Part shown: piece after piece, positions 4,090 through 59,909 of the stretch
Numbering within the stretch: the stretch's first letter is position 1
Layout of the letters: each line of letters begins with the position of its first letter
NCBI GenBank assembly: GCA_024679065.1
Contig: JAGIQG010000008.1
Location: 96,844,001-96,908,000, forward strand
Direction: 5' to 3'
Origin: Sphyrna mokarran
Lineage: Eukaryota
Length of the DNA stretch: 64,000 nt
The notes under the pieces: model-generated
Database searches by the model: none
Told to the model about the DNA's origin: nothing
Seen by the model: only the letters and a program-made list of their open reading frames with translations
Translations under genes and position numbers: made by a program

Positions 4090-4690
4090 CATGTTTAACA
4101 GCAATTGAGAATGAATTAAAAATAATCTGATTGTTCATTATTGTTTCCATCAATTCAGTTTGTAATTCGTATCTAAACAGAAACAGGGTAGAAAGAAAAA
4201 GCAATGAACAGTTCATGCTGTCTGTGAGCAAAAGTGTTGCATAAAAATTAGGATGCTTAATGAAGTACTTATCTGAGAAATAGGGTTACCTATTTATGGA
4301 TCAAAAGCACTGAGCTCAATTTAATTCACGTCTATTATTTATATATTTCTAAACAATTACCACTGTACTTTCTACTCATTTGTGCTAATGGTTTACACTC
4401 TCATATAATCTCAAGTTCAACTAGAATTGACAGATGCCCTGTCAAACACTCCAAACAATACTCCAAGTGAAATGGGAGAACAACAGAATCAAGATGAAGG
4501 AAAAAACAATTCAGATATTGTAGCTGGCTTGATGTTCCAGTCCAGAATATCTGTCCAGCAAATGTCTTGACTGAAACTATGTATTTGATGGAAAATTCAA
4601 CACACAGTCATCATCAGATTTGTAAAGATGAAGCTGCTTTTCTTAAGTATAGAAATTGATTGAATTTTCTGATTTGAATACTACTTTATT
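4090..4690 (-). pseudogene. TLR7/8-like LRR remnant (old, divergent paralog of the array unit)
   Basis: Nucleotide similarity to the array unit (cactgtactttctactc, tcttgactgaaac) and to 43740-43930. Confidence 0.6.
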
Positions 4691-7430: not shown

Positions 7431-8765
7431 GACTATGTTGGTATTTCGGTACATCTGCTGCCATTGTTGTTATGGATCTCAGTATTTGCAAACTTGGAAG
7501 CTACCCTTGAAGAAGTTGCATGTGACCAAATTATCCAATGTATAATTTATTGATGGTGTGAAGTGCAGAAGAGTATCCCAGTTAGTAATACCTAAACTTT
7601 TCATCAGGTCAATAGAATTCCTTCAAAGTTGGGACCCTTAACAAACTAATGGGTGCAACAGATGGTGGACACAATAAATGTGATGAAATGATTTATGTTT
7701 CATTGAAAGACATGGAAAAATTGTTTCTCACTTAGATATTGATCTGAAAATTGTGGCTTCAATATTCTTTGACACGTTAGCTAAGTCATTTAGAAATGTT
7801 GTCTGCCAGCCAGAAGGAAATGGATGCTTACCTCCTCACTAACCCTCACTGATAGTGCGCCCAAATTGAACATATATGGAGCATGTCTGACTCGCATGGA
7901 TTTTGGATGAACCAACATGGTGGTAAAGGGGGAAGTGCCAGTAAAGTTGGATGTGCAGCCCTTTAAATCAATTTAAATGCATGAAAATTTCATGCGCTAT
8001 TCAAAACCTTGATAAAGAGGGAATTGGTGCAGAGGCTGGCACAGATCACGCTACTGTCTCATGCCTAACTTCACCAAGTTTTCTCACCTGAAAACAGGCA
8101 CAATATGATTGTTTTCTGCCAAACAGAAGGAAATGGTATGATGTACTAGTCCAGGATATTGAGTAAATATCTTGACTGAAACCTAGTACATTTTTGTGAT
8201 GGAATGATGCAGTTACAGTCATCCTCATATCTGCATTGGATGAAACTCCTTTTTTCAAAAACAGAGACTGATTTCCATTTACAAGTAGAATGCTCATTGA
8301 TGTGTCCTGACATTGAAGTACCTTTCCTTCACAATGTTTATGCTCCACAAAAATATTTTGCTCATTATTTCCAGGGCAAATTTTATAACAAAATTGTGCA
8401 ATTTTACAGATAATATTTGAAACAAATTGTCTGAGCTATATTGAGGGATAGCAGTTAATACTGACTATGAGATAATAACAGAATGCACAATGATTAGGAT
8501 CCTTCATGTAGCACTCACCTAAGAAACAGGAATACATAACCACTAATAAAGAAGCAAGGATGTCAACTAAATTGATGTGCGAAAATTGCATATTAACCAA
8601 AAGCCTTATCACTGCACTTTCTACTCTTTAACACAGTGAGAGTCTACATTATCATTGAATGTTGTGCTTACGTAGAGCCAAAGAGAAGAACCAAATGAAC
8701 CAAACAATACTGTTGAGAAAGCTACACAGGATCAGAATTAAGTACCAAAGGATCAGGAAAATAAA
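7430..8765 (-). pseudogene. TLR7/8-like ectodomain remnant (C-terminal LRRs), interrupted by a Harbinger end fragment at ~7830-8090
   Basis: Minus-strand KNVLGFSQDIYSIS ~ TLR7 KNLLKLEELDISKNS; LVNGNQ ~ EFRGNH; HTINK ~ TLR8 KTINK; LPSLQILR/IHNN LRR motif. Confidence 0.75.
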
Positions 8766-11700
8766 TATTTGCATTTTAGCCAAAAGCCTTATCACTGTAC
8801 TTTCTACACTCAAACCAATGAGTTTACATTCTCATGTCTTTTGGTGTTCATGTAGACTCACAGGGAAGATCTTCAAATGAACACAACAATACTGTTCACA
8901 AAGGTCAACAGGATCAGAATCAAATACAAAAGTATCAGGAAAATAAAGGTGGGTTCAATGAAGAAATATCAAATATACAAAAATTTTATTCATTCGTTGT
9001 CTGAGGAAGAATGTATAACATTGCGTTCAATTTATATTTGTATTGATGTGATAAGATAGGTTCGAATTACATTTGTAGTTTTTTTCTGAGTATGGTCCTG
9101 CGGAGACTGGAGGCATTATTTGTATTTTGAAGAAGATAGAGGTAGTTTAACTGATCTATATTTGTACCGTTATGTTTTAGAAATGAGGCGTAGTTTTAAG
9201 TAGGTTTAATTAAGCCTTGCTGTACAGGGAAGTAAGGGCACCAGGTGGATTCGTTTAAGGCAAAGTATTTTGCATCTAAGTACAGACAGAAAAAATAGGG
9301 AATGTAATTGATGATGATTTTAGGTATGAAGAGAGCTGATAGCCAAGAAGGGGATGTTGATCATGTTGGGTGTTTTGGTGCACCTGTTTGCTTTGTTGTT
9401 ATGCATATCAGTAGTTGTGAACTTAGAAGCTGCCCTTGAAGAAGTATTCGCCCAAATCATCCAAAGTGATAGTTATCGATGGTGTGGAATAAAGGAGATT
9501 ATTTCAGTTAGCAAGAGTCTAAATTGCCTAATGAGGTCACCGGAATTTCTTCAAAGATGTTGACAAAGAATTGGGAGCAATTGATGGTGGACGAAGTAAA
9601 TGTGACGAAATGCATTCCATACTATTGAAAGAGGGGGAAAGTATTGTTTATGACTGAGGCATTGGTGGAAAAATTGTGTTTTCAAGTATTTGTGCACACA
9701 TGAGCTAAGTCATTTAGAAATGTTGTCAGCCAACCAGAAGCAAATGTGTTGATGTTCTAATCCAGGATATTGAGTAAATATCTTGACTGAAAGCCAGTGC
9801 ATTTCTGTCTTGCAAGGGTACAGTTACAGTCGTCATCATTTTTGCACTGGAGAAAGTGTTTGTTTTCAAAAACAGAGACTGATTTCCATTTGCAATTCGT
9901 ACACCCCGTTGTGTTCCTGACATTGAAGTACCTTTCATTCACAATGTTTATGGTCGAAAAAAACATTGTGCTCATGAATTCCAAGGCAAATTATATAACA
10001 AAGTTGTGTAATTTTGCAAATAATATTCAAAACAAATTGTTTGAAGTATTTTGAGGAATAGCAGTTAAGGTGAGAAAATACCAAAATGCATAATGCTTAG
10101 GATCCGTAATGTAGCACTTACCTAAGAAATTGGAATAGCTAACCATTGATAAAGAAGCAAGGAGGTCAACAAAACTCATGTGCAATGTTTTCATTTTAGC
10201 CAACAGCCTTATCACTGTACTTTCTACTCCCAAGCCAATGAGTTTACATTCTCATGTCTTTTGGTATTCATGTAGATTCAAAGGGAGTATCTTCAAATGA
10301 ACAAAACAATACTGCTGAGAAAACTCAACAGGATCAGAAGGAAATACCAAAAGATCAGGAAAATAAAGGTGGGTTCAATGAAGAAATATCAAAGGTACAA
10401 AAATTCATTCATTCATTGTCTGAGGGAGAATGTATAACCTTGAGTTCAATTTATATTTGTATAGATGTGTTAAGATAGGTTCTAACTACATTTGTAGTTT
10501 TTTTCTGAGCACAGTGCTCAGAGTCTGGAGGCATTATTTGTATTTTGATGAAGATGGAGATAGTTTAATTGATCTATATTTGTACTGTTATGTATTAGAA
10601 ATGAGGCATAGTTTTAAGTAGGTTTAATTAAATCGTGCTGTGCAGGGACGTTAGGGCTGATAAGTGGATTCATAAAAGGCGAGGAATTTTGTATCTAACT
10701 ACATTCAGGAAAATGTAGGGAATGTAATTGATGATGATTATGGGTATGTACAGAGCTGGCAGCTAAGAAGGGGAGGTTTTTCATGTTGGTGTTTTGGTGC
10801 ACCTGCTTGCCTTGTTGTTATGGATATCAGTAGTTCTGAACCTGGAAGATGCACTTGAAGAAGTATTCGCCCAAATCATCGAAAGTGTTAATTATCGATG
10901 GTGTGGAATGTCGGAGAGTATTCCAGTTAGCAAGAGCCTAAATTGCCTAATGATGTCACCAGAATTTCTTCAAAGTTGTTGACAAAGAATTGGGAGCAAT
11001 TGATGGTGGACAAAATAAATGAGACGAAATGCATTACACACTATTAGAAGAGGGGGAAAAAATTGTTTGTCACTGAGGCATTGATTGAAAAATTGGGTCT
11101 TCAACTATTCATCGACACATAAGATAAGTCATTCAGTACTGTTGTCTGCCAACCAGAAGGAAATGCATTGATATACTAATCCAGACTATTGAGTAAATAC
11201 CTTGACTGAAACCTGATACATTTTTGTGCTAGAATGATACAGTTGCAGTCATCCTTATTTTTGCAATGAGGAAAGTGGGATTTTTTGAAGAACAGAAACT
11301 GATTTCCATTTCCAGTTAGAGTGCCCCTTTGCGTATCCTGACATTGAAGTACCTTTCGTTCACAATGTTGATCATTCAGGGAAATATTGTGCTCATGAAT
11401 TCCAGGGCAAATTATATAACAAAGTTGTGTAATTTTGCAAACAATATTCGAAACAAATTATTTGAAGTATTTTCAGAAATAGCAGTTAAGGTGAGAAGAT
11501 ACCAAAATGCGTAATGCTTAGGATCCTTAATGTAGCACTTACCTAAGAAATTGGAATAGCTAACCATTGATAAAGAAACAAGGAGGTGAACTAAACTCAT
11601 GTGCAATGTTTTCATTGTAGTCAACAGCCTTATCACTGTACTTTCTACTCCCAAGCCAATGAGTTTACATTCTCATGTTTTTTGGTGTTCATGTAGACTC

Positions 11701-14700
11701 ACAGGGAGAACCTTCAAATGAACAAAAAAATACTGCTGAGAAAACTCCACCAGATCATTCTGAAACACCAAAAGATCAGGAAAATAAAGGTGGGTTCAAT
11801 GAAGAAATATCAAAGGTACAAAAATTCATTTCACTGTCTGAGGGAGAATGTATAACATTGAATTGAATTTATCTTTGTATAGATGTGTTAAGATAGGTTC
11901 TAATTCCATTTGTAGTTTTTTTCTGATTATGGTGCTCAGAGTCTGGAGGCATTATTTGTATTTTGATCAAGATAGAGGTAGTTTAATTGATCTATATTTG
12001 TACTGTTATGTATTAGAAATGATGCATAGTTTTAAGGAGGGTTATTTAAATCTTGCTGTGCAGGGACGTAATAGCCATGCGGATTCATAAAAGGCTAGGA
12101 ATTTTGCACCTAAGTACAGTCAGGGAAATGGAGGGAATGTAATTCATGATGATTATGGGTATGTAGAGAACTGGCACCGAAGAAGGGGAGGTTTTTCATG
12201 TTGGTGTTTTGGTGCACCTGCTTGCCCTATTGTTATGGATATCAGTAGTTGTGAACCAGGAAGCTGCACTTGAAGAAGTGTTCGCCCAAATCATCCAAAG
12301 TGTTAATTATCGATGGTGTGGAAGAGTAAGAGAGTATTCCAGTTAGCAAGAGCGTAAATTGCCTAATGAGGTCACCAGAATTTCTTCAAAGTTGTTGACA
12401 AAGAATTGGGAGCAATTGATGGTGGATGATATAAATGTGACGAAATGCATTACACACTATTAGAAGAGGGGGAAAGAATTGTTTGTCACTGAGGCATTGA
12501 TTGAAAAATTGGGTCTTCAACTCTTCATCGACACATAAGTCATTCAGAACTGTTGTCTGCCAACCAGAAGGAAATGCATTGATGTACTAATCCAGGTTAT
12601 TGAGTAAATACCTTGACTGAAACCCGTTACTTTTTTGTGATGGAATGATACAGTTCCATTCATCTTCATTTTTGCAATGGGGAAAGTGTGTTTTTCAAGA
12701 ACAGAAACTGATTTGAATTTCCAGTTGGAATGTCCCTTTGTGTGTCCTGACATTGAAGTAGATTTCGTTCACAATGTTCATCATCCAGGGAAATATTGTG
12801 TCATAAATTCCAGTGCAAATTATATAACAAAGTTGTGTAATTTTGCAATCAATATTCGAAACAAATTATTTGAAGTATTTTGAGGAATAGCAGTTAAGGT
12901 GAGAAGATACCAAAATGCGTAATGCTTAGGATCCTTAATGTAGCACTTACCTAAGAAATTGGAATAGCTAACCATTGATAAAGAAACAAGGAGGTGAACT
13001 AAACTCATGTGCAATGTTTTCATTGTAGTCAACAGCCTTATCACTGTACTTTCTACTCCCAAGCCAATGAGTTTACATTCTCATGTTTTTAGGTGTTCAT
13101 GTAGACTCACAGGGAGAACCTTCAAATGAACAAAAAAATACTGCTGAGAAAACTCCACCAGATCATTCTGAAACACCAAAAGATCAGGAAAATAAAGGTG
13201 GGTTCAATGAAGAAATATGAAAGGTACAAAAATTCATTCATTGTCTGAGGGAGAATGTATAAGCTTGAGTTGAATTTATATTTGTATAGATGTGTTAAGA
13301 TAGGTTCTAATTACATTTCTAGTTTTTTTCTGAATATGGTGCTCAGAGTCTGGAGGCATTATTTGTATATTGATGAAGATAGAGGTAGTTTAATTGATCT
13401 ATATTTGTACTGTTATGTATTAGAAATGAGGCGTAGTTTTAAGTAGGTTTAATTAAATTCTGCTGTGCAGCGAAGTAAGGGTTCCCATGTAGATTTATAA
13501 AAGGCGAGGAATTTTGCATCTAAGTACAGTCAGAGAAATGGAGGGAATGTAATTGATGATGATTATAGGTATGTAGAAAGCTGGCAGGTAAGAAGGGGAG
13601 GTTGGTCATGTTGGTGTTTTGGTGCACCTGCTTGCCCTGTTGTTATGGATATCAGTAGTTGTGAACCTGGAAGCTGCACTTGAAGAAGTGTTTGCCCAAA
13701 TCATCCAAAGCGTTAATTATCGATGGTGTGGAATGTCGGAGAGTATTCCAGTTAGCAAGAGCCTAAATTGCCATATGAGGTCACCAGAATTTCTTCAAAG
13801 TTGTTGACAAAGAATTGGGAGCAATTGATGGTGGACAAAATAAATGTCATGAAATGCATTACACACTATTAGAAGAGGGGGAAAGAATTGTTTGTCTCTG
13901 AGGCATTGATTGTAAAATTGGGTCTTCAACTATTCATCGTCACATAAGATAAATCATTCAGAACTGTTGCCTGCCAACCAGAAGGAAATACATTGATGTA
14001 CTAATCCAGGTTATTGAGTACATACCTTGACTGAAACCCGTTACTTTTTTGTGATGGAATGATACAGTTCCATTCATCTTCATTTTTGTAATGGGGAAAG
14101 TGGGTTTTTCAAGAACAGAAACTGATTTCCATTTCCAGTTAGAATGTCCCTTTGTGTGTCCTGACATTGAAGTAGATTTTGTTCACAATGTTCATCATCC
14201 AGGGAAATATTGTGCTCATAAATTCCAACGCAAATTATATAACAAAGTTGTGTAATTTTGCAATCAATATTCGAAACAAATTGTTTGAAGTATTTTAAGG
14301 AATAGCAGTTAAGGTGAGAAGATACCAAAATGCGTAATGCTTAGGATCCTTAATGTAGCACTTACCTAAGAAATTGGAATAGCTAACCATTGATAAAGAA
14401 ACAAGGAGGTGAACTAAACTCATGTGCAATGTTTTCATTGTAGTCAACAGCCTTATCACTGTACTTTCTACTCCCAAGCCAATGAGTTTACATTCTCATG
14501 TTTTTTGGTGTTCATGTAGACTCACAGGGAGAACCTTCAAATGAACAAAAAAATACTGCTGAGAAAACTCCACCAGATCATTCTGAAACACCAAAAGATC
14601 AGGAAAATAAAGGTGGGTTCAATGAAGAAATATGAAAGGTACAAAAATTCATTCATTGTCTGAGGGAGAATGTATAAGCTTGAGTTGAATTTATATTTGT

Positions 14701-17700
14701 ATAGATGTGTTAAGATAGGTTCTAACTACATTTCTAGTTTTTTTCTGAATATGGTGCTCAGAGTCTGGAGGCATTATTTGTATATTGATGAAGATAGAGG
14801 TAGTTTAATTGATCTATATTTGTACTGTTATGTATTAGAAATGAGGCGTAGTTTTAAGTAGGTTTAATTAAATTCTGCTGTGCAGCGAAGTAAGGGTTCC
14901 CATGTAGATTTATAAAAGGCGAGGAATTTTGCATCTAAGTACAGTCAGAGAAATGGAGGGAATGTAATTGATGATGATTATAGGTATGTAGAAAGCTGGC
15001 AGGTAAGAAGGGGAGGTTGGTCATGTTGGTGTTTTGGTGCACCTGCTTGCCCTGTTGTTAAGGATATCAGTAGTTGTGAACCTGGAAGCTGCACTTGAAG
15101 AAGTGTTCGCCCAAATCATCCAAAGCGTTAATTATCGATGGTGTGGAATGTCGGAGAGTATTCCAGTTAGCAAGAGCCTAAATTGCCATATGAGGTCACC
15201 AGAATTTCTTCAAAGTTGTTGACAAAGAATTGGGAGCAATTGATGGTGGACGATATAAATATGACGAAATGCATTACACAGTATGAGAAGAGGGGGAAAG
15301 AATTGTTTGTCACTGAGGCATTGATTGAAAAATTGGGTCTTCAACTCTTCATCGACACATAAGATAAGTCATTCAGAACTGCTGTCTGCCAACCAGAAGG
15401 AAATGCATTGATGTACTAATCCAAGTTATTGAGTAAATACCTTGACTGAAACCCGTTACTTTTTTGTGATGGAATGATACAGTTCCATTAATCCTCATTT
15501 TTGCAATGGGGAAAGTGGGTTTTTCAAGAACAGAAACTGATTTGAATTTCCAGTTAGAATGTCCCTTTGTGTGTCCTGACATTGAAGTAGATTTCGTTCA
15601 CAATGTTCATCATCCAGGGAAATATTGTGTCATAAATTCCAGGGCAAATTATATAACAAAGTTGTGTAATTTTGCAATCAATATTCGAAACAAATTATTA
15701 GAAGTATTTTGAGGAATAGCAGTTAAGGTGAGAAGATACCAAAATGCGTAATGCTTAGGATCCTTAATGTAGCACTTACCTAAGAAATTGGAATAGCTAA
15801 CCATTGATAAAGAAACAAGGAGGTGAACTAAACTCATGTGCAATGTTTTCATTGTAGTCAACAGCCTTATCACTGTACTTTCTACTCCCAAGCCAATGAG
15901 TTTACATTCTCATGTTTTTTGGTGTTCATGTAGACTCACAGGGAGAACCTTCAAATGAACAAAAAAATACTGCTGAGAAAACTCCACCAGATCATTCTGA
16001 AACACCAAAAGATCAGGAAAATAAAGGTGGGTTCAATGAAGAAATATGAAAGGTACAAAAATTCATTTCACTGTCTGAGGGAGAATGTATAAGCTTGAGT
16101 TGAATTTATATTTGTATAGATGTGTTAAGATAGGTTCTAATTACATTTCTAGTTTTTTTCTGAATATGGTGCTCAGAGTCTGGAGGCATTATTTGTATAT
16201 TGATGAAGATAGAGGTAGTTTAATTGATCTATATTTGTACTGTTATGTATTAGAAATGAGGCGTAGTTTTAAGTAGGTTTAATTAAATTCTGCTGTGCAG
16301 CGAAGTAAGGGTTCCCATGTAGATTTATAAAAGGCGAGGAATTTTGCATCTAAGTACAGTCAGAGAAATGGAGGGAATGTAATTGATGATGATTATAGGT
16401 ATGTAGAAAGCTGGCAGGTAAGAAGGGGAGGTTGGTCATGTTGGTGTTTTGGTGCACCTGCTTGCCCTGTTGTTATGGATATCAGTAGTTGTGAACCTGG
16501 AAGCTGCACTTGAAGAAGTGTTCGCCCAAATCATCCAAAGCGTTAATTATCGATGGTGTGGAATGTCGGAGAGTATTCCAGTTAGCAAGAGCCTAAATTG
16601 CCATATGAGGTCACCAGAATTTCTTCAAAGTTGTTGACAAAGAATTGGGAGCAATTGATGGTGGACGAAATAAATGTCATGAAATGCATTACACACTATT
16701 AGAAGAGGGGGAAAGAATTGTTTGTCACTGAGGCATTGATTGTAAAATTGGGTCTTCAACTATTCATCGTCACATAAGTCATTCAGAACTGTTGTCTGCC
16801 AACCAGAAGGAAATACATTGATGTACTAATCCAGGTTATTGAGTACATACCTTGACTGAAACCCGTTACTTTTTTGTGATGGAATGATACAGTTCCATTC
16901 ATCTTCATTTTTGTAATGGGGAAAGTGTGTTTTTCAAGAAATGAAACTGATTTCCATTTCCAGTTCGAATGTCCCTTTGTGTGTCCTGACATTGAAGTAG
17001 ATTTTGTTCACAATGTTCATCATCCAGGGAAATATTGTGCTCATTAATTCCAGCGCAAATTATATAACAAAGTTGTTTAATTTTGCAATCAATGATCGAA
17101 ACAAATTGTTTGAAGTATTTTAAGGAATAGCAGTTAAGGTGAGAAGATACCAAAATGTGTAATGCTTAGGATCCTTAATGTAGCACTTACCTAAGAAATT
17201 GGAATAGCTAACCATTGATAAAGAAACAAGGAGGTGAACTAAACTCATGTGCAATGTTTTCATTGTAGTCAACAGCCTTATCACTGTACTTTCTACTCCC
17301 AAGCCAATGAGTTTACATTCTCATGTTTTTTGGTGTTCATGTAGACTCACAGGGAGAACCTTCAAATGAACAAAAAAATACTGCTGAGAAAACTCCACCA
17401 GATCATTCTGAAACACCAAAAGATCAGGAAAATATAGGTGGGTTCAATGAAGCAATATGAAAGGTACAAAAATTCATTCATTCATTGTCTGAGGGAGAAT
17501 GTATAAGCTTGAGTTGAATTTATATTTGTATAGATGTGTTAAGATAGGTTCTAACTACATTTCTAGTTTTTTTCTGAATATGGTGCTCAGAGTCTGGAGG
17601 CATTATTTGTATTTTGATGAGGATAGAGGTAGTTTAATTGATCTATATTTGTACTGTTATGTATTAGAAATGAGGCGTAGTTTTAAGTAGGTTTAATTAA

Positions 17701-20700
17701 TTCTTGCTGTGCAGCGAAGTAAGGGTTCCCATGTAGATTCATAAAAGGCGAGGTAATGTGCATCTAAGTACAGTCAGAGAAATGGAGGGAATGTAATTGA
17801 TGATGATTATGGGTATGTAGAGAGCTGGCAGCGAAGAAGGGGAGGTTGGTCATGTTGGTGTTTTGGTGCACCTGCTTGCCCTGTTGTTATGGATATTAGT
17901 AGTTGTGAACCTGGAAGCTGCACTTGAAGAAGTGTTTGCCCAAATCATCCAAAGTGTTAATTATCGATGGTGTGCAATGTCGGAGAGTATTCCAGTTAGC
18001 AAGAGCCTAAATTGCCTTATGAGGTCACCAGAATTTCTTCAAAGTTGTTGACAAAGAATTGGGAGCCATTGATTTTGGAGGATATAAATGTGACGAAATG
18101 CATTACACACTATTAGAAGAGGGGGAAAGAATTGTTTGTCACTGAGTGATTGATTCAAAAATTGGGTCTTCAACTATTCATTGACACATAAGTTAAGTCA
18201 TTCAGAACTGTTGTCTGCCAACCAGAAGGAAACGCATTGATGTACTCATCCAGTTTATTGAGTAAATACCTTGACTGAAACCTGTTACATTTTTGTGATG
18301 GAATGATACAGTTACAGCCATCTTCATTTTTGCAATGGGGAATGTGGGTTTTTTGAAGAACAGATACTGATTTCCATTTCCAGTTCGAATGCCCCTTTGC
18401 GTACCTTGACATTGACGTACCTTTCGTTCACAATGTTCATCATCCAGTACATATTTGTACTATTATGTATTAGAAATGAGGCGTAGTCTTAGATAGGTTG
18501 AATTAAATCTTGCTGTGCAGAGACGTAAGGGCCGCCAAGTGGATTTGTAAAAGGCGTATAATTTTGCATCTAAGTACAGACAGAGAAATGTAGGGAACGT
18601 AATCGATGATGATTATGGATGTGTAGAGAGCTGGCAGGTAAGAAGGGGCGGTAGGTCATATTGGTGTTTTGGTTCTCCTGCTTGCCTTTTTGTTATGGAT
18701 ATCAATAGTTGTGAACCTGGAAGCTGCACTTGAAGGAGTATTCGCCCAAATCTTCCGAAGTGTTAATTATCGATGGTGTGCAATGTAGGAGAGTATTCCA
18801 GATAGCAAGAGCCTAAATTGCCTGATCAGGTGACCAGAATTTCTTCAACATTGTTGACAAAGAATTGGAAGTAATTGATGGTGGACGAAGTAAACATGAT
18901 GAAATGCATTCGACACTATTAAAAGAGGGGGAAGGAATTGTTTGTCACTGAGGCATTGATCAAAAAATTGTGTTTTCAAGTATTTATAGACACATTAGAT
19001 GTCATTCAGAAAAGTTGTCTACCAACCAGAAGGAAATGTTTTCATGTTCTAATCCGGGATGTTGAGTAAATATCTTCACTGAAACCTGATACATTTTTAT
19101 CCTGGTATTGTACAGTTACAGTCAACCTCATTTTTGCAATGGAGAAAGTGGCTTTTTTCAAGAACAGAAAGTGATTTCCATTTCCAATTTGAATGCCCCT
19201 TTGTGTGACCTGACATTGAAGTACCTTTCAATCACAACGTTCATGGTCCAGGAAAATATTTTGCTCATGAATTCCTGAGCAAATTGTATCACAAAGTTCA
19301 ATTTTGCAAATAAAATTTGAAACAATTTGTTTGAGGTATATCGATGTATAGCAGTTAAGATGAGAAAATACCAAAATGCGTAATGCTTAGGAACCTTAAT
19401 ATAGCACTTACTCAAGAATTGGTATAGCTAACCATTGACGAAGATGAAAGAAGGTCAGCGAATCTCATTTGCAATATTTGCTTTTTCGCCAAAAGCCTGA
19501 TCACTGTATTTTCTTCTCCCAAGCCAATGAGTTTACATTATCAGGTATTTTGATGTTCATGTAGACTTACAGGAACAATCTTCAAATAAACGAAACAATA
19601 CTGTTGACAGAGATCAACAGAATCAAATACGAAAGGATCAGGAAAATAAAGGTGGGTCCAATGAAGAAATAGCAAAGATACAAAAATTTTATTCGTTCAT
19701 TGTCAGAGGGAGAATGAATAACTTTGAGATCAATTTACATTTGTATTGATGTTTTAATATAGGTTCTAATTACATTTGTAGTTTTTTTCTGATTATGGTC
19801 CTGTGGAGTCTGGAGACATTATTTGTATTTTTATGAAGATAGAGGTAGTTTAATTGATCTATATTTATACTGTTATGTATTAGAAATGAGGCACAGTGTT
19901 AAGTAGGTTGAATTTCGTCTTGCTGTGCAAGGAAATAAGAGGCGCCAAGTGCATTCATATAAGGCAAAGTATTTTGCATCGAAGTACAGACAGAAAAATA
20001 TAGGGAATGTAATTGATGATGGTATGTAGAGAGCTGGCAGCTAAGAAGGGGAGGTTGGTCATGTTGGTGTTTTGGTGCACCTGCTTGCCTTGCTGTTATG
20101 GATATCAGTAGTTGTGAACTTGGAAACTGCGCTTGAAGAAGTATTCGCCCAAATTGTCCGAAGTATCAGTTCTCAATGGTGTGGAATGTAGGAGAATATT
20201 CCAGTTAGCAATAACCTAAATTACCTAATCAGGTCACCGGAATTTCTTCAAAGTTGTTGACAAAGAATTGGGAGCAATTGATGGTGGACGAAATAAATGT
20301 GACGAAATGCATTACACACTATTAGAAGAGGGGGAAAGAATTGTTTCTCACTGAGGTATGGATTGAAGAATTGTGTCTTCAAGTATTCACAGACAGATTA
20401 GCTACGTCATTCAGAACTGTTGTCTGCCAACCAGAAGGAAATGCATCGATGTACTAATTCAGGATATTGAGTAAATAACTTGACTGAAAACTAGTACATT
20501 TTTGTGATGGAACGATACAGTTACAGTCATCCTCATTTTTGCAATGGAGAAAGTGTTTTTTTCAAGAACAGAAACTGATTTCCATTTCCATTTAGAATGT
20601 CCTTCTGTGTGTCCTGACATTGAAGTATCTTTCGTTCACAATGTTCATGATCCAGGAAAATATTTTGCTCATGAATTCCAGGGCAAATTGTATAACAAAG

Positions 20701-21625
20701 TTGGTAATTTTGCAAATAAAATTTGAAACAAATCGTTTGAGGGATATTGAGGAATAGCAGTTAAGACTGACTGTGAGGAAATAAAAAATGCATGCTGCTT
20801 GGGATCCCTAATGTAGCACTTACCTCAGAAGTAGGAATATCTAACCATTGATAAAGAAGCAAGAAGATCAACTATATTCATCTGCCAAATTTGCATTTTA
20901 CCCAAAAGCCTTATCTCTGTACTTTCTTATTCCTAACACAATATGTACGCATTATCATGCATTTTGATGTTCATGTAGACTCATAGGGAGCATCTTCAAA
21001 TGAGCCAAATAGTACTGTGCATAACGCTCCTCAGGATCAGAATCATGGATTAAAGTAACAGGAAAGTAAAGGTGGGTTCAATGAAGGAGTATCAAAGATG
21101 AAACGATTTTATTCATTCATGGTCTGAGGAACAATGTGTAACGTTGAGTTCAATTTATATTTGCACTGATGTGCTAACGCAGGTTTTAATTGTATTTTTT
21201 CTGAGTATAGTCCTTCGGAGTTTGGAGATATTATTTGCATTTTCATAAAGATGGGATAGTTTAAATGATGTACATTTGTACTGTTATGTATTAGAAATGA
21301 TGCATGGTTTTCAGTGGGTTTAACTTAGTCCAGCTGTTCAAGAAAATAAAGACCTCCAGTTAGATTCATGTAAGGCAAAATATTTTGCACCTAAGGTACA
21401 GACAGAAAAATATGGGAATGTATGTGGTGGTTATGGCTAAGAAGAAAGCTGATAGCTCCGAAGAGGAGGTTGTTCATGTTGGTATTTTGATGCACCTGCT
21501 GCCTTTATTGTTATAGATGTCTGTAGTTGTGGCTTTGGAAATTGGTCCAAGATGTATTTGATCAAATTATCCAAAGTATTATTTATCAATGTTGTGGAAT
21601 GTAGCAGAGTTTTCCAGTTAGCAGT
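8765..21625. repeat. Young tandem array, ~1.41-kb unit, ~9.5 copies; unit = TLR7/8 LRR remnant + LTR 5' fragment + Penelope-like fragment
   Basis: Marker tgtagac/tgtagat at 8851, 10271, 11692, 13100, 14515, 15929, 17340, 19560 and 20974 (spacings 1408-1421; one of 2220 from a ~600-bp deletion near 18448); central units are nearly identical. Confidence 0.97.
8856..19651 (+). other. Eight candidate symmetric phase-1 cassette exons: 8856-8948, 10276-10368, 11697-11789, 13105-13197, 14520-14612, 15934-16026, 17345-17437, 19565-19651
   Basis: Each is flanked by ..tgtAG and AG|GTgggt, 93 nt (one 87 nt), stop-free, e.g. DSQGEPSNEQKNTAEKTPPDHSETPKDQENK; no transcript evidence. Confidence 0.4.
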
Positions 21626-21814: not shown

Positions 21815-24720
21815 CCTGAACCTGTCATCAGTCACCAGAATTTCTTCAAAGTTGTGACCATTCACTAAGTATGGGTGGAGTAGATGGTGAACACAATAAA
21901 TGTGATGAAATGCATTGTGTGCTATTGAAAGGCAGTGAATGAATTGTTTCTCACTGAGGTATTGATGTGAAAATTGTGGTTTCATATATTCTTAGGTAAA
22001 TTAGCTAAGACATTCAGAAATGTTGTCTGTCAATCAGAAGGAAATGGCTTTATGTACTAGTCCAGGATATAGAATTGTGGTAACATAATCTGGGCCCGGT
22101 CTTAAGGCTGATTAAATTAGATATCCTGAATTAAAGAACTGGGCATATTAAAATCAAACACAGTCAAACCTCGGGCAGACCGATTTTACAAATGCACAAG
22201 CATGTCTGGGCCTGACCCATCAATCATCCATCAAATGTTGTTGCACTCTACTAATACTTAGCAGGTCATTGCATCCCATTGAAATGCAGCGGCCTATTGT
22301 TAGAAGCCCAGATTGGGCCTAACTTTCTGTCACTGCGAGTTCCTGCAGTTACCTCATCTGATAACAGGTTACCTGTGAGCAACAGTATGGAAATGGATAC
22401 CTGGGGGCGGACCCTGGTGTCTTTTCAGTCAGACATTAAGAAACCACTGGATATTGGTAACCCCTCCTGGGACCTCATTGGACCTCATTGGCTGGAACCA
22501 GAGAAAATTCTGGAAAGGCAAGTAGGCAGGGGGATATAAATACACATCTCAGACACATCAGCAGTGAAGACACAAGGGAGGTGACCTTGACCATGTGGAA
22601 GATTGACCAGAGAAGGAAGGAGCTGCCATCGAGATTCATATTCGTGATAACAGACCAGAGAGACTCAGAAAACCGAGCCTGCAGTTTAACCAAACTATCT
22701 TGCGGTATACTTGAATCTGGGGCATCCTCTTGTTTTATGTGGGTAATGTAAGGGTTAATAATGTTATTATTAATAAATTTGTTGAACCTTTACTTGTGTT
22801 TGTCTTTTGTCCATCTTGCAAATAAGGGCACTGGGGTAAAACCTTGCAGTGAGCAAACTGGTCAAAAGTATCTGAGAATTAACAAGTACAACAGAATAAA
22901 TATCTTGATGGCAACTTGGTACATTTTTGTGTTGGAATGATGTGGTTACACAGTCATCCTCATATATGCATTGGATAAAGCTCATTTTTTCAAATACAGA
23001 AACTGATTTCCATTTCCAATTAGAATGCTCCTTGATGTGTCCTGACATTGAAGCACTTTTCTTTCATAAAGTTTATGATCCAGGAAAATATTTTGCTCAT
23101 GAATTCCAGGGTAAATTATATAACAAGGTTGTGCAATTTTGCAAAAAGTATTTGAAACAAATTGTCTGAGCTCTATTGAGGGATTGCAGTTAATACTATG
23201 AGGAAATAAAAAATGCATGATGCCTGGGCTCCTTAATGTAGCACTTACCTAAGAAATAGAAATATTTAACTGTAGGTAAAGAAATAAGGCAGTCAACTAA
23301 ATTCATGTGCAATATTTGCATTTTAGCCTAATCACTGTACTTTCTATTTCCTAACATCATGAGTTTACATTATGGTGGATTTTGGTGTTTATGTAGACCC
23401 AATGGGAACAATTTCAAATGAACCAAACAGTACTGTGTATAAAGCTCAACTAGATCAGAATTAAGGATCAAAGGATCAGGAAAATAAAGGTGAGTTCAAT
23501 GAAGAAATATCAAAGGTGCAAAGATTTTATTTGTTCATGGTCTGAGGAACAATGAATTGAGTTCAGTTTATATTTGTATTGATGTGTTGTAGCAGGTTTA
23601 GTTACTTTAGTTTCTCTAAGTATGGTCCTGCAGAGTCTGGAGACACTATTTGTATTTTCATGAAGTTTGAGATAGTTGACTTGATCTATATTTGTATTGT
23701 TAAGTATTAAAAGTGATGCATAGTTTTCGATGGGTTTAATTTAATCTTGCTGTGTAAGAAAGTAAGGAGCTCCAGTCAGATTCACGTAAGGCAAAGTATT
23801 TTGCATAAGGGGTACATATAATTTAGGAACAAAAATTAAGTGGAAACAAGAATCCCAGTTATCTAACAACACTGTTCCTGGGCACGTAGTCACAGGGAAA
23901 GGCAGAATTGCTGTTCTCTCTGTCTATATGATAGCGAGTGAAGACAGCCGCTCTGTACTCACTGATTGTAAATTGTAACTTTGCTAAGGAGCAGATTATG
24001 GGCAACTCCTGCATTGAAATAATAGTTACGACAGTCAAAATGGTATAGGTGTAGGCCTTTGAGGATGTTGTTAGAGGTTTTCGGCCCTGTGACAATATAG
24101 GAATGGGCACGTCTTTCCAAGACAGAAATTTTTCAGACATAAACGGGAGTTTTAAAGCAAATTACTGGGGATTCCGGAATCAGAACCAGAAACAGAAATG
24201 ACAAGAAATCTTTGCAAGTGTGACAGCATCTGTGGAAAGAAAACAGAGCGAATGTTTTGAGCCTGAATGATCTTTGTCAGAGCTAAGGCAATAGAAAGTA
24301 GCATGAGATTTATACTGTTGTGGGGTCAGCAGTAGGTGGGGGGGTATTGGTTATCCAAGGGAGCTGGATAGAGTGCCAGCGGTTGGTGAAGATAGGAGAA
24401 AATGGCAAAGATGTCATAGACAGAAAAATATAGTGGTTGTAAAGGGTGGAGATCATGGCTAAAAGAAGGGTGCTGATAGTTCAGAAGAGGAGTTTGGTCA
24501 TGTTGGTGTTTCGGTGTACCTTGTGGCCCTTGTTGCTATGAGTACACACTGAGCAGTTGTGAACTTGGAAACTGCCCTTGAAGAAGTTGTATTCAACCAA
24601 ATAAACCAAAATATTATTTATCGATGATGTGGAATGTAGGAGAATATTCCTGTTAGCAATAGCCTAGACTAGTCATCAGGTCACCAGAATTTCTTCAAGC
24701 TTGTAATCCTAATTAATGGT
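21815..24720 (-). pseudogene. TLR7/8-like remnant: older unit that still retains the LRR-CT/TM segment (23825-24160)
   Basis: Homologous to the array unit; ORF 23859-24140 FLSWKDVPIPILS ~ TLR7 FVWWVNHTEVTIPYLAT, followed by hydrophobic YTILTVVTIISM. Confidence 0.7.
22076..22893 (+). mobile_element. Solo LTR (818 bp) with 4-bp TSD GAAT
   Basis: TGTGGTA...TACAACA termini; gaat at 22072-75 and 22894-97; TATA-like gatataaat ~22533; AATAAA ~22772; interrupts the consensus ccaggatattgagtaaatatcttg. Confidence 0.85.
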
Positions 24721-26240: not shown

Positions 26241-26242
26241 TA

Positions 26243-30592: not shown

Positions 30593-30594
30593 AA

Positions 30595-32450
30595 TTTGCC
30601 AGACAGTGGCAAATCTTCACTGGGATTTTCTGTAAGAATATTCTTGGGATAAGGGAAATGGTGTGAATTTGGAGCATGTTCCCATGTTTGTTTTGAAAAC
30701 TTGCCAACCATTTTATATAGTTTAATATTATTCATTGTTCCTTTGTAATGAGCAGTCTATTTCCATAGAATCTCTACAGGGCAGAAGGAGGCATTTGGTT
30801 CATTGAGTCTGCATCGACCAGCATCCCACCCAGGCCTTATCCCTGTGATTCCCATATACTTACCCTGCTAATCCTCCTGACAGTAAAGGATAATTTAGCA
30901 TGGTCAATCAACCTAACCCAGACATCTTTAGAATGTGGGTGGAAACCAGATTATCTGGCGGAAATGCACACTGACATGGGAGAATGTGCAAACTCCGCAG
31001 ATGGTGGCCTGAGGTTGGGATAAAACCTGAGTCCCTGACACTGTGAGGCTGCAGTGCTAACCACTGTGTCACCATGCCACCCATTATAAAATGCACTGGC
31101 ATTGTTATTGTAAGTAAGAAGTCTGACAACACCAGCTTTAAGTACAACCGATTTATTTGAAAGTAAACTCACAAGCTTTCGAAACTCCTCTTCGTCAGGT
31201 GAATGAGGTGTTTTGGTCTCAGATAGCACATATAACAGCACAGACTATTACAGATTACTAATTACTAATTAAACCAAAATATAATTTATTGATGGTGTGA
31301 AATGTAGAAGAATGTCCAAGTTAGCAAAAGCTTCATTTCATCAAAGACCAGCAGATTTATTTCAAGATTGCATCCTTAACAAACCAATTTGTGCAACAGA
31401 TGGTGGTGATAAGAAATATAGTCAGATATATTTTATTGAAATGCAGGAAATAATTTTTACTCAATGAGGCACTGATCTGTACATAATGGCATCAAGTGTT
31501 CTTCGAAATATTAGTTATACTATTTGTAAAGTAACATTGAGTTCACCTAAATTCATGTCCAAAAGAAATATCATTGTACTTTCTGCTCCTTCATGCTCTG
31601 AATTTACTTTATTGTATATATTTGTGTTCTTCTAGAATTAACAGAAGTGTCTCCAGAACATTGAAGCAACAGTCCAAAAGAAATGGAAGCTCCACTAAAT
31701 CAGAATGAAGATCTCAAGAGTTCAGAAAATTGGAATCAAAGTTGATGCAGACTCAACAGTCCAAATCACCTTTCTCTGTACTGTCAGGATTCTATGATTC
31801 TGTGTTGTTATTCCAATGTACCTTGTTCTTCAAGATATCGGTGATTGTGAGTTTGGAAGCAGCTTTAGAAGAAGAAGTAGTTAATCAAATTAAACAAGGT
31901 TTAATGTGTTCCTGTAATATGTAGGAATATGGTGTAGGGCCTGGGTGGGATTTTGTTTGGTGCAGACTCGATGGGCCGAAGGGTCTCTTTCTGCACTGTA
32001 GGATTCTATGATAGTGATTAATGGTGTAGAATGTAGGAGAATATTCCACTTAGCAAAATACTCATTTTGCCATTGTTCAACAATCTTGATTGTCACCTTC
32101 AAAAACGAACATGTGCAATAGAAGTCAAGTTAATAAATGTATAGAAATGCCCAATGTTCTATTGAAATAGAGGGATGTATTCTGACTGAAGCATTTATCT
32201 GCGCATAGTGATTTCAGATATTCTTAAAATATTAGCTGTAGCATTCAGAAACGACAGATGGAAATGTATTGATATTCTAGTTCAGAACCTTGAGCAAATA
32301 TTTTCGCTGACTGCTTGTCCATATTGTGTTGGAATGATGCATTTGCTCAGCCATCCTCATTTTGGATGGAACTTTTTTTTTCAAATTCAGAAATTGATTA
32401 AATTTTTTACTTTAAACACCGCTGTTGTGTCCTTATCTTGAATTATGTTA
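30595..32450 (-). pseudogene. Fragmented TLR7/8-like remnants interspersed with SINE pieces
   Basis: 31270-31520, 31540-31730, 31810-31930 and 32010-32450 are homologous to unit blocks; HTINK at ~31295; YIKWL at ~30715 resembles LRR-CT. Confidence 0.6.
30765..31083 (-). mobile_element. HE1-type tRNA-derived SINE
   Basis: Minus strand gggtggcatggtgacacagtggttagcactgcagcctcacagtgtcagggac.. with a tagagattctatg tail. Confidence 0.85.
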
Positions 32451-38324: not shown

Positions 38325-39130
38325 TTGCTATAGATGGTGGAGGCAATAAATGTAATGAAATAGCTTATGTTCTATTGGAATGCAGAATTTTGACCAAAAG
38401 ATTTGACTGAAACTTAGTATACATTTGATGGAATGATGCAGTTGCACAATCATCCTCATATTTGTATCTGATAAAGCTGCTTCTTGAAATACAGATGTTG
38501 ATTGCATTTTCTGATGATAATGGCATTGATGTGTCTCTAACATTGAAATACCTTATTTTTACAATAAGATCCCAGAAACAAAATGTTTGTAAACTCCTGG
38601 GCAAATTGTATAATAAAACTGAGTAATGTTGCCAGTAATAATTGAAACTATTTGTTTGAGGTATATTCAGGGCAGTAAGGGAAACTGACTATCACTTAAT
38701 ATTCATTGGGGGAAGAAAGTATTGCATAATACTTAGGATTCTTAACGTAACACTTTTCTGAGAAATAAGGAAATCTGTCCACGGATAAAGAACCATTGAG
38801 CGAATCTAAGTTCATGTCTATCATTTGATTTTTAGCCAAAAGAAATATCACTGTATTTTCTGTTCTTTTATATGCTGATTTTGCATTATCATGCATTTTT
38901 ACATTCATCTAGGACCAACAGAAACCTTTTTAAACAGTTCAAACAGTGCACTGAATGAAATGGGAGATCCATTGAATCAGAATGAAGAACCAAAGAGTCA
39001 AGAAATTTAGGAGTCATAGTCATTGCAGACTCAATAGGCCAAATTGCCTCTTTCTATACAGTAGGGATTCTATTTGTTGATACTTTGATGCCCTTTCTCT
39101 TCAAAATATCAGTGGTTGTGAGTTTGGAGG
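38325..39130 (-). pseudogene. TLR7/8-like LRR remnant (divergent unit)
   Basis: Colinear with the array unit; ORF 38696-38908 is homologous to the unit's MGVESTVIRLL..KCYIKDPK frame. Confidence 0.65.
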
Positions 39131-45620: not shown

Positions 45621-46064
45621 TGGACTGTATTTTACCAGGTTGTAAGTGCTGGTTGGACTTGAATCTAAGAGTGTTTCAGATCCGACTTTTAGACCCGATC
45701 TCAGGTGCTCCCATATGCACTCTGTCTGAAAAAAATAGCATGATGTTGAGATGCCGGCGTTCGACTGGGGTAAACTCAGTAAAGTTTTACAACACCAATT
45801 TTAAATCCAACCAATTTATTTGATAGTAAATCCACGAGCTTTCGCCACTATGTTGTGCCTTCGTCAGGCAAATGCAGTGTTCTGATCTGCAGAGGCACTC
45901 ATATCCACACAGACAGTTACAGATTGCTGATTAGAATGCGAATCCTTACATCTAACCTGCCATTCAAGTGTTAAAGTGGCTAACAATGTGTGTGAAGGGA
46001 ATCCTGAGCATTGGTTAGAGAATTGTGTATTTTCTCCAGACAGCACAGTAAGTGTGGTTTTTTG

Positions 46065-56338: not shown

Positions 56339-56677
56339 GATCTTTAAAATTGGAGATATTTCCCTCACCACTGGAAGTTTCAGCAAATGAAGATGCTCTT
56401 CTAATGTGCAAATTTGATAAACCAGAATACGACCTCACACATGTAGCAGTTCGATGGGCTTTTGCATCATATACAAACCAGAAAGATATGTATATATTTG
56501 ACGGAGGAGATCATTACCCAAAGAGAAATGGAGCAAAGATGTTCAACGACGCTTTACGGAAAGGAAATGCTTCACTTTACCTTCCAAATGTACAACTTGA
56601 TGAAGCAGGAGAATATACCTGCACGGTCATTGTTACTCCACAAAAAGAACAAAAGAGTTCAGTGATGCAAGTATCTG
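56339..56677 (+). CDS. NCR3LG1: B7-H6 (NCR3LG1)-like, exon 2, IgV domain
   Basis: aag|GA..TCTG|gtaaga, 339 nt; LMCKF..VRW..GNASLYLPNVQLDEAGEYTCTVIVTPQKEQ ~ human B7-H6 [30 protein letters not shown]. Confidence 0.92.
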
Positions 56678-56814
56678 GTAAGAGAGACTAAATCATTTTC
56701 TAATATGATAAATAGCTGATACACACATAGTATTGGCAGGTACTGCTCTAAGTAATAATATTTGTTTGCAATCTACAAAAGGTAATAATGCATTTCAAAC
56801 ATTAAACTTTTAGT

Positions 56815-57190
56815 GGGTGAATGGCATGGTGGCAGAGTGGTTAGCACTGCTGCCTGACAGTGCCAGGGGACTTGGGTTCAATTCGGGTCTTGAGTGATTG
56901 TGCTGTGTTAGCACATTCTTCCCATGTCTGCATGGGTTTCCTTTGGGTGCCCCAGTTTCCTCCTAACTCCAAAGATGTGTGGATTGGTCATGGTAAATTG
57001 CCCCTTAGTGTCCAAAGATGTGCAGATTGGGTGGGTTAGGCGTGGTAGATGTGTGGGGTGTTGGGGATGGGACTGCAGGGACAAGGGGGCTGTTCTTGGT
57101 AAAATGCTGTTGCAGAGAGTTGCTGCAGACTTGATGGGCTGAATGGCCTCCTTCTGCTCTGTAGGGATTCTATGGTTTTATGGTTCTAGT
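56815..57190 (+). mobile_element. HE1-type SINE
   Basis: ggcatggtggcagagtggttagcactgctgcc..gggttcaattc..gtagggattctatg. Confidence 0.85.
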
Positions 57191-57687
57191 TCGCTTGGTG
57201 AATCTGAATTCGCCAGATAGTAATACAATCACAAAGACTGCAGTTTTTACCTTGTTGCATTGGCTGAGGCAGCTATACTAAGATTACAAAGGACAATGTG
57301 AATCTTGAATGGGGCATCGAACAGAACTTCTTTGATTAAATAAATGCTTGACTCTGAAAACCTATAGTGACGATATTGGGGGCGATCTTACCAGAATTTG
57401 GCACATTCACAATTCTGATGGGAACACTTGTGGCAAACCTTCCAGCTTCACTGGTCTGTTTTATTTTCAGGGCTTGTCACTTTAACACTTAAAAAAGCAG
57501 AGTGGGCAGGGTTTGTGCCATTGCTGTAGTGGGCAGGGATTCGTAGAGTTGGGAACTATCTCCACAGTGACTAGGTGCCCTGATCCTAAATAAGATCCCA
57601 TCCTCACCACAGAGGTATCTGGGGTCTCCTCCTCCCCCCACCACCAGAGGTATGTGGGGCCTTTGTGGGTATAGTCTTTTGCTCTGT

Positions 57688-57985
57688 TCCCTCACAGTGC
57701 CGTGGATCTGGGTTCGATTCCCAACTTAAGTGGCCGTCTGTGTGGAGCTTGCACAATCTCCCCGTGTCTGAGTGGCTTTCCTCTGGGTCCTCCGGTTTCC
57801 TCCCACAGTCGAAAGAAGTGCGGGTTAGGTGGATTGGCATGCTAAATTGCTTCTCAGTATTAGGGGTACTAACTTTGGTAAATGCATGGGGTTGTGGGGA
57901 TAGAGCCTAGGTGGGATTCTGGTCAGTGCAGATTCGTTGGGCTGAATGGCCTCTTTCTGCAGTTTAGTGATTCTATGATTCTGTG
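57688..57985 (+). mobile_element. HE1-type SINE (5'-truncated)
   Basis: cctcacagtgcc..gggttcgattccc..ggtttcctcccacagtc..gattctatgattct. Confidence 0.8.
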
Positions 57986-58386
57986 AACCTGATTATTCAC
58001 CAGTGAGGGGCGAGGAAAATCAGAAATTTCCATCTTGCCAATCGAATTAGCGATTTCCAGTTTACTCTGGATTTTGAAATCCCTTTGATGATCTTGTGCA
58101 CAGAGAAGGTGGGCTCATGATCCCGCCCAGAGTAAATAAAAATAAGGAAATGGGGAAATGTTGAATAATGACTTTGCAACAATCTTTGTAGGAGAAAAAT
58201 ACAAGAATAGCTTGTCAGACGTCCCAAAGGAACACTAGGAAGTAAAGAATTAAATCAATGTGGTAGCTTTTCAGGTACAGCAGCTGGAATGCAGAATTCA
58301 GATCTCTCAAAATAAGAAACTGCAACATCCAGTTTGATCTGTAATGTTGTATTAACAGCTTACATATCCTGTTCTCTTTCACACAG

Positions 58387-58701
58387 TCCAGCCAAAAGTC
58401 AATATGTACCAACAAGAAATCACCATTGCAGATGGTACAGGGCACTTCTTGGTATGTGATGTGAAGGAATTTTATCCTAAACAAGTCAATATTAATTGGT
58501 TAATGCTATCAGAAGGAAAAAAGGAATATATTTCAAAAAATCAGTCCATTGAAGATTTAGTTACGAACAGTGATGGAACATTTAGTGTTTCCAGTAAAAT
58601 AAGAATTGAACCAACGTTGGATGATCGCATTAAGTATACATGTGTGGTGAAGCATAAAACCTTTCTTGGCAATTTTACACTGGATTCCGACCAAGATGAA
58701 G
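58387..58701 (+). CDS. NCR3LG1: B7-H6 (NCR3LG1)-like, exon 3, IgC1 domain
   Basis: cag|TC..GAAG|gtaagg, 315 nt; LVCDVKEFYPKQVNINW..NSDGTFSVSS..YTCVVKH (C1-set). Confidence 0.92.
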
Positions 58702-58844
58702 GTAAGGTTTGTTTAGAGAAGATTGCAAGTTTTTCTCAATTTTTTTTTAACAATAATGAAGCTCCCAATTAGATTTCTCTTACATAACATCCATTGTTAC
58801 AAATTATCTGCTTTTGGTACAAGCATTTTTTTTAAAAAAAGGAC

Positions 58845-59182
58845 TCATTGAATCCCTACAGTGAAGGAAAAGGCCTTTCAGCCCTTCAAGTCTACACCAA
58901 CTCTCCAACACAGCATCATACCCAGGTCCTATCTCTGTAACCCTACATACTTACCCAACTAATACCCCTAACTGCACATCTAAGGACACTAAGGAGCAAT
59001 TTAGCAAGGCCAATTCACCTATCCTGTACGTCTCTGGACTTTGGGAGGAAACTGGAGCATCCAGAGGAAACCCATGGAGACAGGGGCAAATGTACAAACT
59101 CAATACAGACAGTTACCCAAGACTGGAATTGAACCTTGATCCCTGGCACTGTGAAGCAGCAGTGCTCACCATTGTGCCGCCC
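58845..59182 (-). mobile_element. HE1-type SINE
   Basis: Minus strand gggcggcacaatggtgagcactgctgcttcacagtgccaggga. Confidence 0.8.
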
Positions 59183-59909
59183 TGGTGAGAATCACACAGC
59201 CAGTTGGAAGTGCAGGGCCCAAACATGTAAGTAATGCTGAGATTCTAAGATCAAGAGTACCCTGATCCCAAAGTTAAAATTAAGCAGCCCCACAAAAGGA
59301 TATTGACTCCCCCACCCCCACATAGAAATCGGGAGCTCCCACAGACAGAGGGATTTTGCCCCATGAATAGAGGGACTCCCCTGCATGTACATTGGGACAT
59401 CTCCCACAGAAATTGGGACATCCCAGCAGACAAGGGAAACACCACCAAGCCCCACATGCACAACAGCCTGTCCCCAACACCCCCCTTCTCCATGAAAAAG
59501 GGAAAACCCTCCCCAAACACAGACGGGGAACCTCTCTCCCATATGGAAATGGGTAATTCCTCCTGCGTGTACTCCTTGTCAGTGCCTGCTGGATGTGACC
59601 CTTTTGGATGTGCCAGGGTGTCAGGTGCAGTGCCTAGGCAAGCCCCTCAACCCATAGAACCCACAGGCATCTCTGCGTCCCCAGCAATAGTGATTTGTGC
59701 TGACGTAACATCACGCCGCGGGTGGAGGGAGTGGATGCTGTTACAGTATCAGGCCCATTACTTAGAATAAAATGTATTTAAATTTATGCAAATTCTCACT
59801 GGGCATGAATCTGATTACAGTCGGCAATGGGAGTTGGGTGGGCATTGGGAACATCTTAAACTGAGATCTCTTGGTACAAATCCCATTTGTGACCACTTTA
59901 GCCACCATT

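Follow-up and report, generated by a model that had tools for sequence, protein, structure and literature searches.

A tandem array of candidate cytoplasmic-tail exons downstream of a B7-H6-like gene in Sphyrna mokarran

Introduction

As a general mechanism, symmetric exons duplicate in tandem and evolve in concert. Here a 64,000-nucleotide (nt) stretch of the Sphyrna mokarran genome, called the window below, was analyzed (GenBank assembly GCA_024679065.1, contig JAGIQG010000008.1, positions 96,844,001 to 96,908,000, forward strand). It contains a tandem array with eight short, open, AG/GT-bounded segments (cassettes) downstream of a gene resembling human B7-H6 (NCR3LG1). The segments are candidate exons of the cytoplasmic tail of that gene. 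Positions are those of the window, and positions outside it carry a sign or are called window-relative.

Human B7-H6 is a type I membrane protein whose IgV and IgC domains have phase-1 introns at their borders, and its tail is homologous to Gag and carries ITIM, SH2, and SH3 motifs, according to excerpts of Brandt et al. (2009; PMC2715080). A search of the literature on B7-H6 in sharks, its tail, and its evolution returned no paper on shark B7-H6-like tails, which does not establish absence from print. Excerpts of PMC6514059 and PMC13262535 contained nothing on shark tails.

Results

Host gene and tandem array

A sequence-only reading of the window had proposed that the segments are spliced as a stalk or tail module into a plus-strand, B7-H6-like gene with phase-1 exons lying upstream. 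Such a host gene was found 2-22 kb upstream of the window. It has the structural features of B7-H6, with a leader exon, V-set and C1-set domains with phase-1 boundaries, and a single transmembrane (TM) segment after IgC. Its Ig domains match Pfam V-set and C1-set. Its internal exons are AG/GT-bounded and in phase 1 throughout, and tail exon 1 ends in phase 1, matching the cassettes. The best PDB matches of the host IgV were human B7-H6 chains (E 3e-13), followed by CD276 (3e-10). The closest database protein was a Mustelus asterias RefSeq model (84%), and two of the five closest homologs are named NCR3LG1-like, by similarity ranking rather than by tree. The TM exon lies upstream of the array, so the array would encode cytoplasmic tail; of the two placements proposed, tail was retained and stalk was discarded. 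KCNJ11 is a neighbor of human B7-H6; on the present contig, the closest gene of the Kir family lies 10 Mb away.

In a self-comparison of the window, units of ~1.41 kb were found to repeat head to tail between 8764 and ~21620, with decayed pieces on both sides at 7.3-8.7 kb and 21.8-27.2 kb. The eight segments described in the sequence-only reading were all confirmed as AG/GT-bounded, phase 1-1, and stop-free with donor GTGGGT (7 of 93 nt and 1 of 87 nt). The single length variant is the copy at 19565, which carries a 6-nt deletion, also as described. The triplet preceding the donor is AAG in seven of the eight and TAG at 17345. Stops were present in the flanking copies at 8676, 20979, and 23397, in agreement with the same reading, and 8676 was additionally frameshifted and without a donor. 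One unit, at 18451-19468, no longer has the segment. When the cassette was searched against the genome, it matched this locus only. Pfam gave no match for the one cassette copy scanned, and a search of a phage collection gave none. About 150 bp of the array-unit intron derives from a dispersed repeat that is also found at 27040-28204. This repeat is old, ~1.2 kb long, and without a Pfam match.

Four of the eight open segments are identical and a fifth has a single-base change. These five form one young lineage, leaving four independent open lineages, which are 11-16% apart over the ~1.41-kb unit. The bare open AG/GT pattern is weak evidence: one unit has 190 in-frame AG..GT pairs of 60-147 nt, and 57 of these are likewise stop-free in phase 1. 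The case depends on context and homology, namely host anatomy, compatible phases, DNA homology to older copies, and the match of two older copies to a Mustelus tail. The array peptides total 238 residues, including 49 D/E, 34 K/R, 63 S/T/P, and 1 Y, with 10 S/T-P sites. A reported drift of the peptides toward P/S/T exists but amounts to one lineage event. The copy at 10276 does have 13 differences to the young copies in its 93 nt. A predominance of replacement changes, also claimed, was not significantly different from chance (23 replacement to 2 silent, p = 0.21).

Older copies and the Mustelus tail

A DNA profile built from four array units alone matched acceptor plus exon at 4425, 31636, 38913, +75003, and +80441 (E 4e-6 to 6e-16). 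The 90 nt upstream of the acceptor aligned between the array and the copies at 4425, 38913, and +75003 in 12/12 pairs (p = 0.002). The exons of the same copies aligned at p < 0.05 in 11/12 pairs. The old exon type has 33 codons and the array type is 6 nt shorter. The copies at 4425, 31636, and 38913 have no donor at the homologous place, as had been observed. The donor is not new in the array. The copy at +75003 already has AAG/GTGAGT at the array donor position, although its acceptor is now TG. The simplest reading is thus an ancestral donor that 4425, 31636, and 38913 have lost, rather than a gain in the array.

The Mustelus asterias ortholog (XP_078077512, LOC144499271) is a RefSeq model of an uncharacterized protein and is 83-88% identical to the host in the Ig exons. 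From the TM onward, its tail runs through a short segment, a ~140-amino-acid (aa) repeat, a set of three polar segments of ~30 aa, and another copy of the repeat, and it closes with one more polar segment. The 4425 and +75003 copies match these tail segments (p = 0.001, 1000 shuffles), with identities of 16/30 for 4425 (14/30 to the terminal segment) and 23/32 for +75003. The cassettes had been proposed to be new protein sequence. This was not supported: the exon family, with acceptor and donor, is older than the array and matches annotated Mustelus tail segments.

Repeated polar segments, together with 1-8 copies of the ~140-aa repeat, are also present in the RefSeq tails of Carcharodon, Cetorhinus, Heterodontus, Stegostoma, Scyliorhinus, and Heptranchias, the copy number being a motif count that may be an undercount. 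Isoforms differing in tail repeats are annotated in Stegostoma (X1/X2), Scyliorhinus (X1/X2), and Carcharodon (up to X11). A direct likeness of the array peptides to the tails of Heptranchias, Scyliorhinus, Stegostoma, and Carcharodon was plausible by eye but not significant. The family is therefore not dated beyond the Mustelus split.

Use of the array

The eight segments are judged, with moderate confidence, to be spliced in series into a long, polar, probably disordered cytoplasmic tail of the B7-H6-like protein. A rather improbable alternative, though one with evidence of its own, is that the gene ends at 4425. The array would then lie beyond the 3' end as unexpressed duplicated DNA, with frames open through youth. 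The copy at 4425 precedes the array, lacks a donor, reads open to a stop, and has AATAAA downstream (4884 and 4926), so transcripts could end there; it also gave the best match to the Mustelus tail, including the terminal segment. Five of the eight copies are near-identical and three close relatives are dead. At the amino-acid level no purifying selection was seen, the replacement rate (pN) equaling or exceeding the silent rate (pS) among open copies. The Ig-fold repeat of the Mustelus tail was not found between the host TM and the next paralog, so the host tail region lacks a cytoplasmic Ig-fold exon that the ortholog has and may be decaying. The protein link is indirect. When cassettes were compared with homologs and tested by shuffling, p < 0.01 was obtained in 0 of 24 cases, and a cassette profile searched against 5.8 billion proteins gave no match among 200 candidates. 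The array peptides are too diverged for a protein match, making their link to the annotated protein transitive, via DNA, and the Mustelus exon boundaries were themselves inferred from protein. The possible end at 4425, the lack of purifying selection, and this indirect link count against serial splicing of the array.

Termination at 4425 is opposed by the four lineages, 11-16% apart in their flanks, that all retain frame and splice sites. In a neutral simulation at the flank rate the probability of this was about 0.03 (P = 0.024-0.037), with the reservation that the simulation was post hoc and its branch lengths were set by hand. Of the 22 gaps in the flanks, 13 are of 1 nt, but the eight open exons show just one length change, of 6 nt. 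Homogenization is also centered on the acceptor and exon. Of the 123 sites that segregate among the five young copies, 28 were expected in the region from -219 to +107 around the exon and 3 were found there (scan p = 0.0002); without the 11697 copy it held 3 of 62 (p = 0.004). The open frames and the exon-centered tract suggest that the array is in use, although the tract could be one neutral conversion event, a further point on the opposing side. Five open copies sampled for a tree clustered apart from stop-bearing ones with support of 93/90, below the tool's star bar. Positive selection on the cassettes was not significant. A faster substitution rate in cassette than in near flank, a comparison suggested by the sequence-only reading, was found in two of six pairs at p < 0.05, uncorrected, and not in the others. 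It is quite unlikely that the copies are used one at a time or a few together, serving as alternative cassettes or as alternative last exons and yielding tail isoforms instead of a single long tail. Symmetric phase would permit skipping, donor read-through reaches a nearby stop in four young copies, and homologs are annotated with isoforms differing in tail repeats. Against this, the splice sites are equivalent in all eight copies with no mark of mutual exclusivity, and the Mustelus model has three related segments in series.

The homogenized tract measures ~330 bp and was located at 11478-11804 and at the equivalent places in four further units. The rest of these units differs by 1-7%.

Test of a TLR-antisense origin

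The array unit had been interpreted as a dead TLR on the opposite strand, with the cassette exonized from the antisense of an LRR. This model is highly improbable. The pattern L.LS.N.[ILF], expected of such LRRs, is absent from all six frames of the window (0 occurrences). Read in register, the antisense of the cassette family has 1-3 stops in 11/11 copies examined. No TLR homology of the unit was found by any test against genome TLRs, Pfam, PDB, or 1.84 billion proteins. For the genome TLRs, 14 of 22 TIR-bearing genomic loci were examined, and 12 hold open reading frames (ORFs) that are 666-1,052 aa long and show features of LRR, TM, and TIR, their TLR names being assigned by reading their sequences. 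The ORFs of the 14 loci gave no match at E < 0.01 to a 464-kb region around the window. TLR profiles gave only negative scores. Pfam searches with 12 frames of two units found no LRR and no TIR, and PDB searches with three minus frames found no LRR or TIR protein. The minus strand of the unit gave no LRR or TIR protein among the 1.84 billion proteins, with ~82% of unit-position by frame combinations covered. A strict first search of the own genome with the unit returned self matches only, and 0 of the 22 genomic TIR matches were on this contig. Loose LRR-pattern matches numbered 1-7 per ~4,280-aa array frame (both strands), compared to 8-22 per intact TLR (670-1,050 aa).

The signals that favor the TLR model are weak hints. 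The best result of a relaxed search was a TLR9-like ORF over the cassette antisense (22% identity, E 0.07), and the top match of a TLR7/8/9 profile, with a negative score, fell in the same place (independent E value 0.42). Minus-strand DNA alignment to TLRs reached z = 4.2. This DNA signal is at the level of local controls, since z >= 3 was also obtained for 9 of 28 unrelated local DNA controls and for the plus strand of the unit, even though the four TLRs compared were chosen as top scorers, a choice favoring the unit. Complementary codons encode opposite hydropathy, as stated in an excerpt of PMC2206014. The LRR-like look of the cassette antisense is accounted for in this way, as the in-register antisense of a polar frame has opposite hydropathy. 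The antisense of ten unrelated tail exons was also rich in L/I/F/V (33-60%, compared to 34-70% in 11 family copies) and gave the only two TLR scores with p < 0.05. The ancestral donor also speaks against the model. Most of the intron is without an identified source, which is in favor of the model in that a source may have decayed past recognition. A codon-periodicity test for past coding use of the intron failed, as did its positive control. Birth of the exon family from non-coding or unrecognizably decayed antisense DNA in a ground-shark ancestor is unlikely; under it the family would now be a copy-number-variable, rapidly diversifying, conversion-swept tail module of a protein resembling a natural killer (NK) cell ligand.

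The lone match among the 1.84 billion proteins was a metagenomic fn3-repeat protein at 6-8 bits per repeat, which was judged spurious. The twelve long TLR-type ORFs are on other contigs and include one near-identical pair on one contig.

Cytoplasmic Ig-fold repeat and neighboring paralogs

A ~141-aa repeat was found after the TM exon of a paralog at window-relative 68142-68566, and also at +140606 and +149239. It was predicted as an Ig beta-sandwich with a confidence score (pLDDT) of 82 from an 11-row alignment; the best structural match had a Z of 10.8 and a root-mean-square deviation of 2.9 over 112 aligned residues. The single-sequence fold was unusable (pLDDT 40). The repeat had no significant PDB sequence match, the tails of the homologs had no Ig-family Pfam match, and profile comparison with the gene's own IgC gave a probability of only 1.8%. 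It occurs in 1-8 copies in B7-H6-like tails across several shark orders and is possibly an undescribed cytoplasmic Ig module, as judged from the predicted fold. It is arguably of greater interest than the array itself.

Downstream, the plus strand carries at least three more paralogs, whose IgV exons are at window-relative 56341, 101808, and 262789. The one at 56341 is a neighbor and not the host (Table 1). The third paralog of the locus has arrays of its own at window-relative 109743-138306 and 160175-203400. They include eight 54-57-nt segments that match a single linker type of Mustelus; seven of these lie at 109.7-130.0 kb, and the eighth, a related segment, lies at 138.2 kb. They also include a ~6-kb repeated unit that carries exons of 78 nt and 81 nt and a short exon of the ENPS type. 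The short exons with inspected boundaries are AG/GT-bounded and in phase 1-1.

A duplicate with 81-84% identity flanks the second paralog on both sides, one copy being at 31264-32442. Its position suggests that the second paralog was copied into, or together with, an old tail region. Broken IgV fragments lie beside intact paralog IgV exons at 49796-49972 and window-relative 102856-103107. Reverse-transcriptase/endonuclease ORF fragments interrupt the locus at 24837-26243, 29422-30756, 46064-47264, and 60438-62281. We take these to resemble CR1-type LINEs.

Table 1. Positions of the host gene, the array, and related features (window-relative where negative).
Feature	Position	Strand	Remarks
Host leader exon	-21902	+	
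Host IgV exon	-12648..-12310	+	
Host IgC1 exon	-9692..-9372	+	
Host TM exon	-5042..-4941	+	102 nt, hydrophobic, then basic residues
Host tail exon 1	-2358..-2278	+	81 nt, hydrophilic
Old family member	4425..4570	+	AG acceptor, open frame, CT at donor position, runs to stop; candidate terminal exon of short isoform
Dead copy	8676..8765	+	in 182-bp tandem duplicate; frameshift, stop, no donor
Tandem array	8764..21623	+	~1.41-kb intron+exon units
Candidate tail exon 1	8856..8948	+	93 nt, phase 1-1, open
Candidate tail exon 2	10276..10368	+	93 nt, open
Candidate tail exon 3	11697..11789	+	93 nt, young type
Candidate tail exon 4	13105..13197	+	same sequence as exon 3
Candidate tail exon 5	14520..14612	+	same sequence as exon 3
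Candidate tail exon 6	15934..16026	+	same sequence as exon 3
Candidate tail exon 7	17345..17437	+	one change compared to exon 3
Partial unit	18451..19468	+	exon lost
Candidate tail exon 8	19565..19651	+	87 nt (6-nt deletion), open
Array copy with stop	20979..21071	+	stop at second full codon; polyA-like hexamer at 21345
Copy with internal stop	23397..23489	+	splice sites intact (AAG/GTGAGT)
Old family member	31636..31731	+	stop, no donor
Old family member	38913..39011	+	open until stop at its end; no donor at homologous place
Neighboring B7-H6-like paralog, not host	56341..63207	+	IgV 56341-56676, IgC1 58386-58700, TM 63109-63207

Discussion

The array is best read as the tandem amplification of a pre-existing symmetric tail exon, judging by the sequence comparisons. 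Neighboring paralogs and shark homologs behave alike with other short phase 1-1 tail exons, which supports this reading. One intron+exon unit would have lost 6 nt and then been amplified via unequal crossing-over. The exon is a multiple of 3 nt long and in phase 1-1, so the reading frame is kept however many copies are gained or skipped, and this symmetry would have let copy number vary freely. Gene conversion, selection, or both may then have spread one exon variant across five units. The predicted long isoform has ~545 aa and would comprise tail exon 1, the eight cassettes (238 extra polar residues), and a stop in the 20979 copy. The predicted short isoform would end at 4425. A tail of this kind may act as a variable-length spacer or an array of phosphorylation sites rather than as a tyrosine-motif signaling tail. 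If the array is expressed, tail length would be a quantitative and probably polymorphic trait of an NK-ligand-like protein. If the birth of a new exon were true, the B7-H6 tail, with the Gag-derived human tail and the shark Ig-fold repeats, would be a place where recruited sequence has landed repeatedly.

The cytoplasmic tails of shark B7-H6-like genes appear to be assembled from phase 1-1 modules of two kinds, short polar exons and the ~141-aa Ig-fold repeat, amplified independently per paralog and lineage. This architecture is apparently undescribed. The Mustelus asterias model shares with the present locus three internal and one terminal ~30-aa tail segment of the array's exon family. It differs in having two cytoplasmic Ig-fold repeats and no 31-codon copy of the array type. 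Other shark B7-H6-like models (Carcharodon LOC121283378 and others) share the order IgV-IgC-TM followed by tandem short hydrophilic segments, with repeat number varying by isoform. Their linkers are not significantly similar to the array's exon family when composition is controlled and may belong to separate exon families.

Human B7-H6 shares IgV and IgC domains with phase-1 introns and is the nearest structural relative of the host IgV. Its tail is Gag-like with tyrosine motifs, as far as described in the excerpts of PMC2715080, whereas the shark tail is predicted from short phase 1-1 exons and is nearly free of tyrosine. The human type of tail is not known to be a defining trait of the family.

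The array agrees with tandem symmetric-exon duplication in its lengths in multiples of 3 nt, equal phases, AG/GT boundaries, open host-compatible frame in 8/8 segments, unequal-crossover arrangement, and homogenized tracts. It differs in that the product would be cytoplasmic and fast-diverging, and in that homogenization does not extend beyond a stretch of ~330 bp that surrounds the acceptor and exon.

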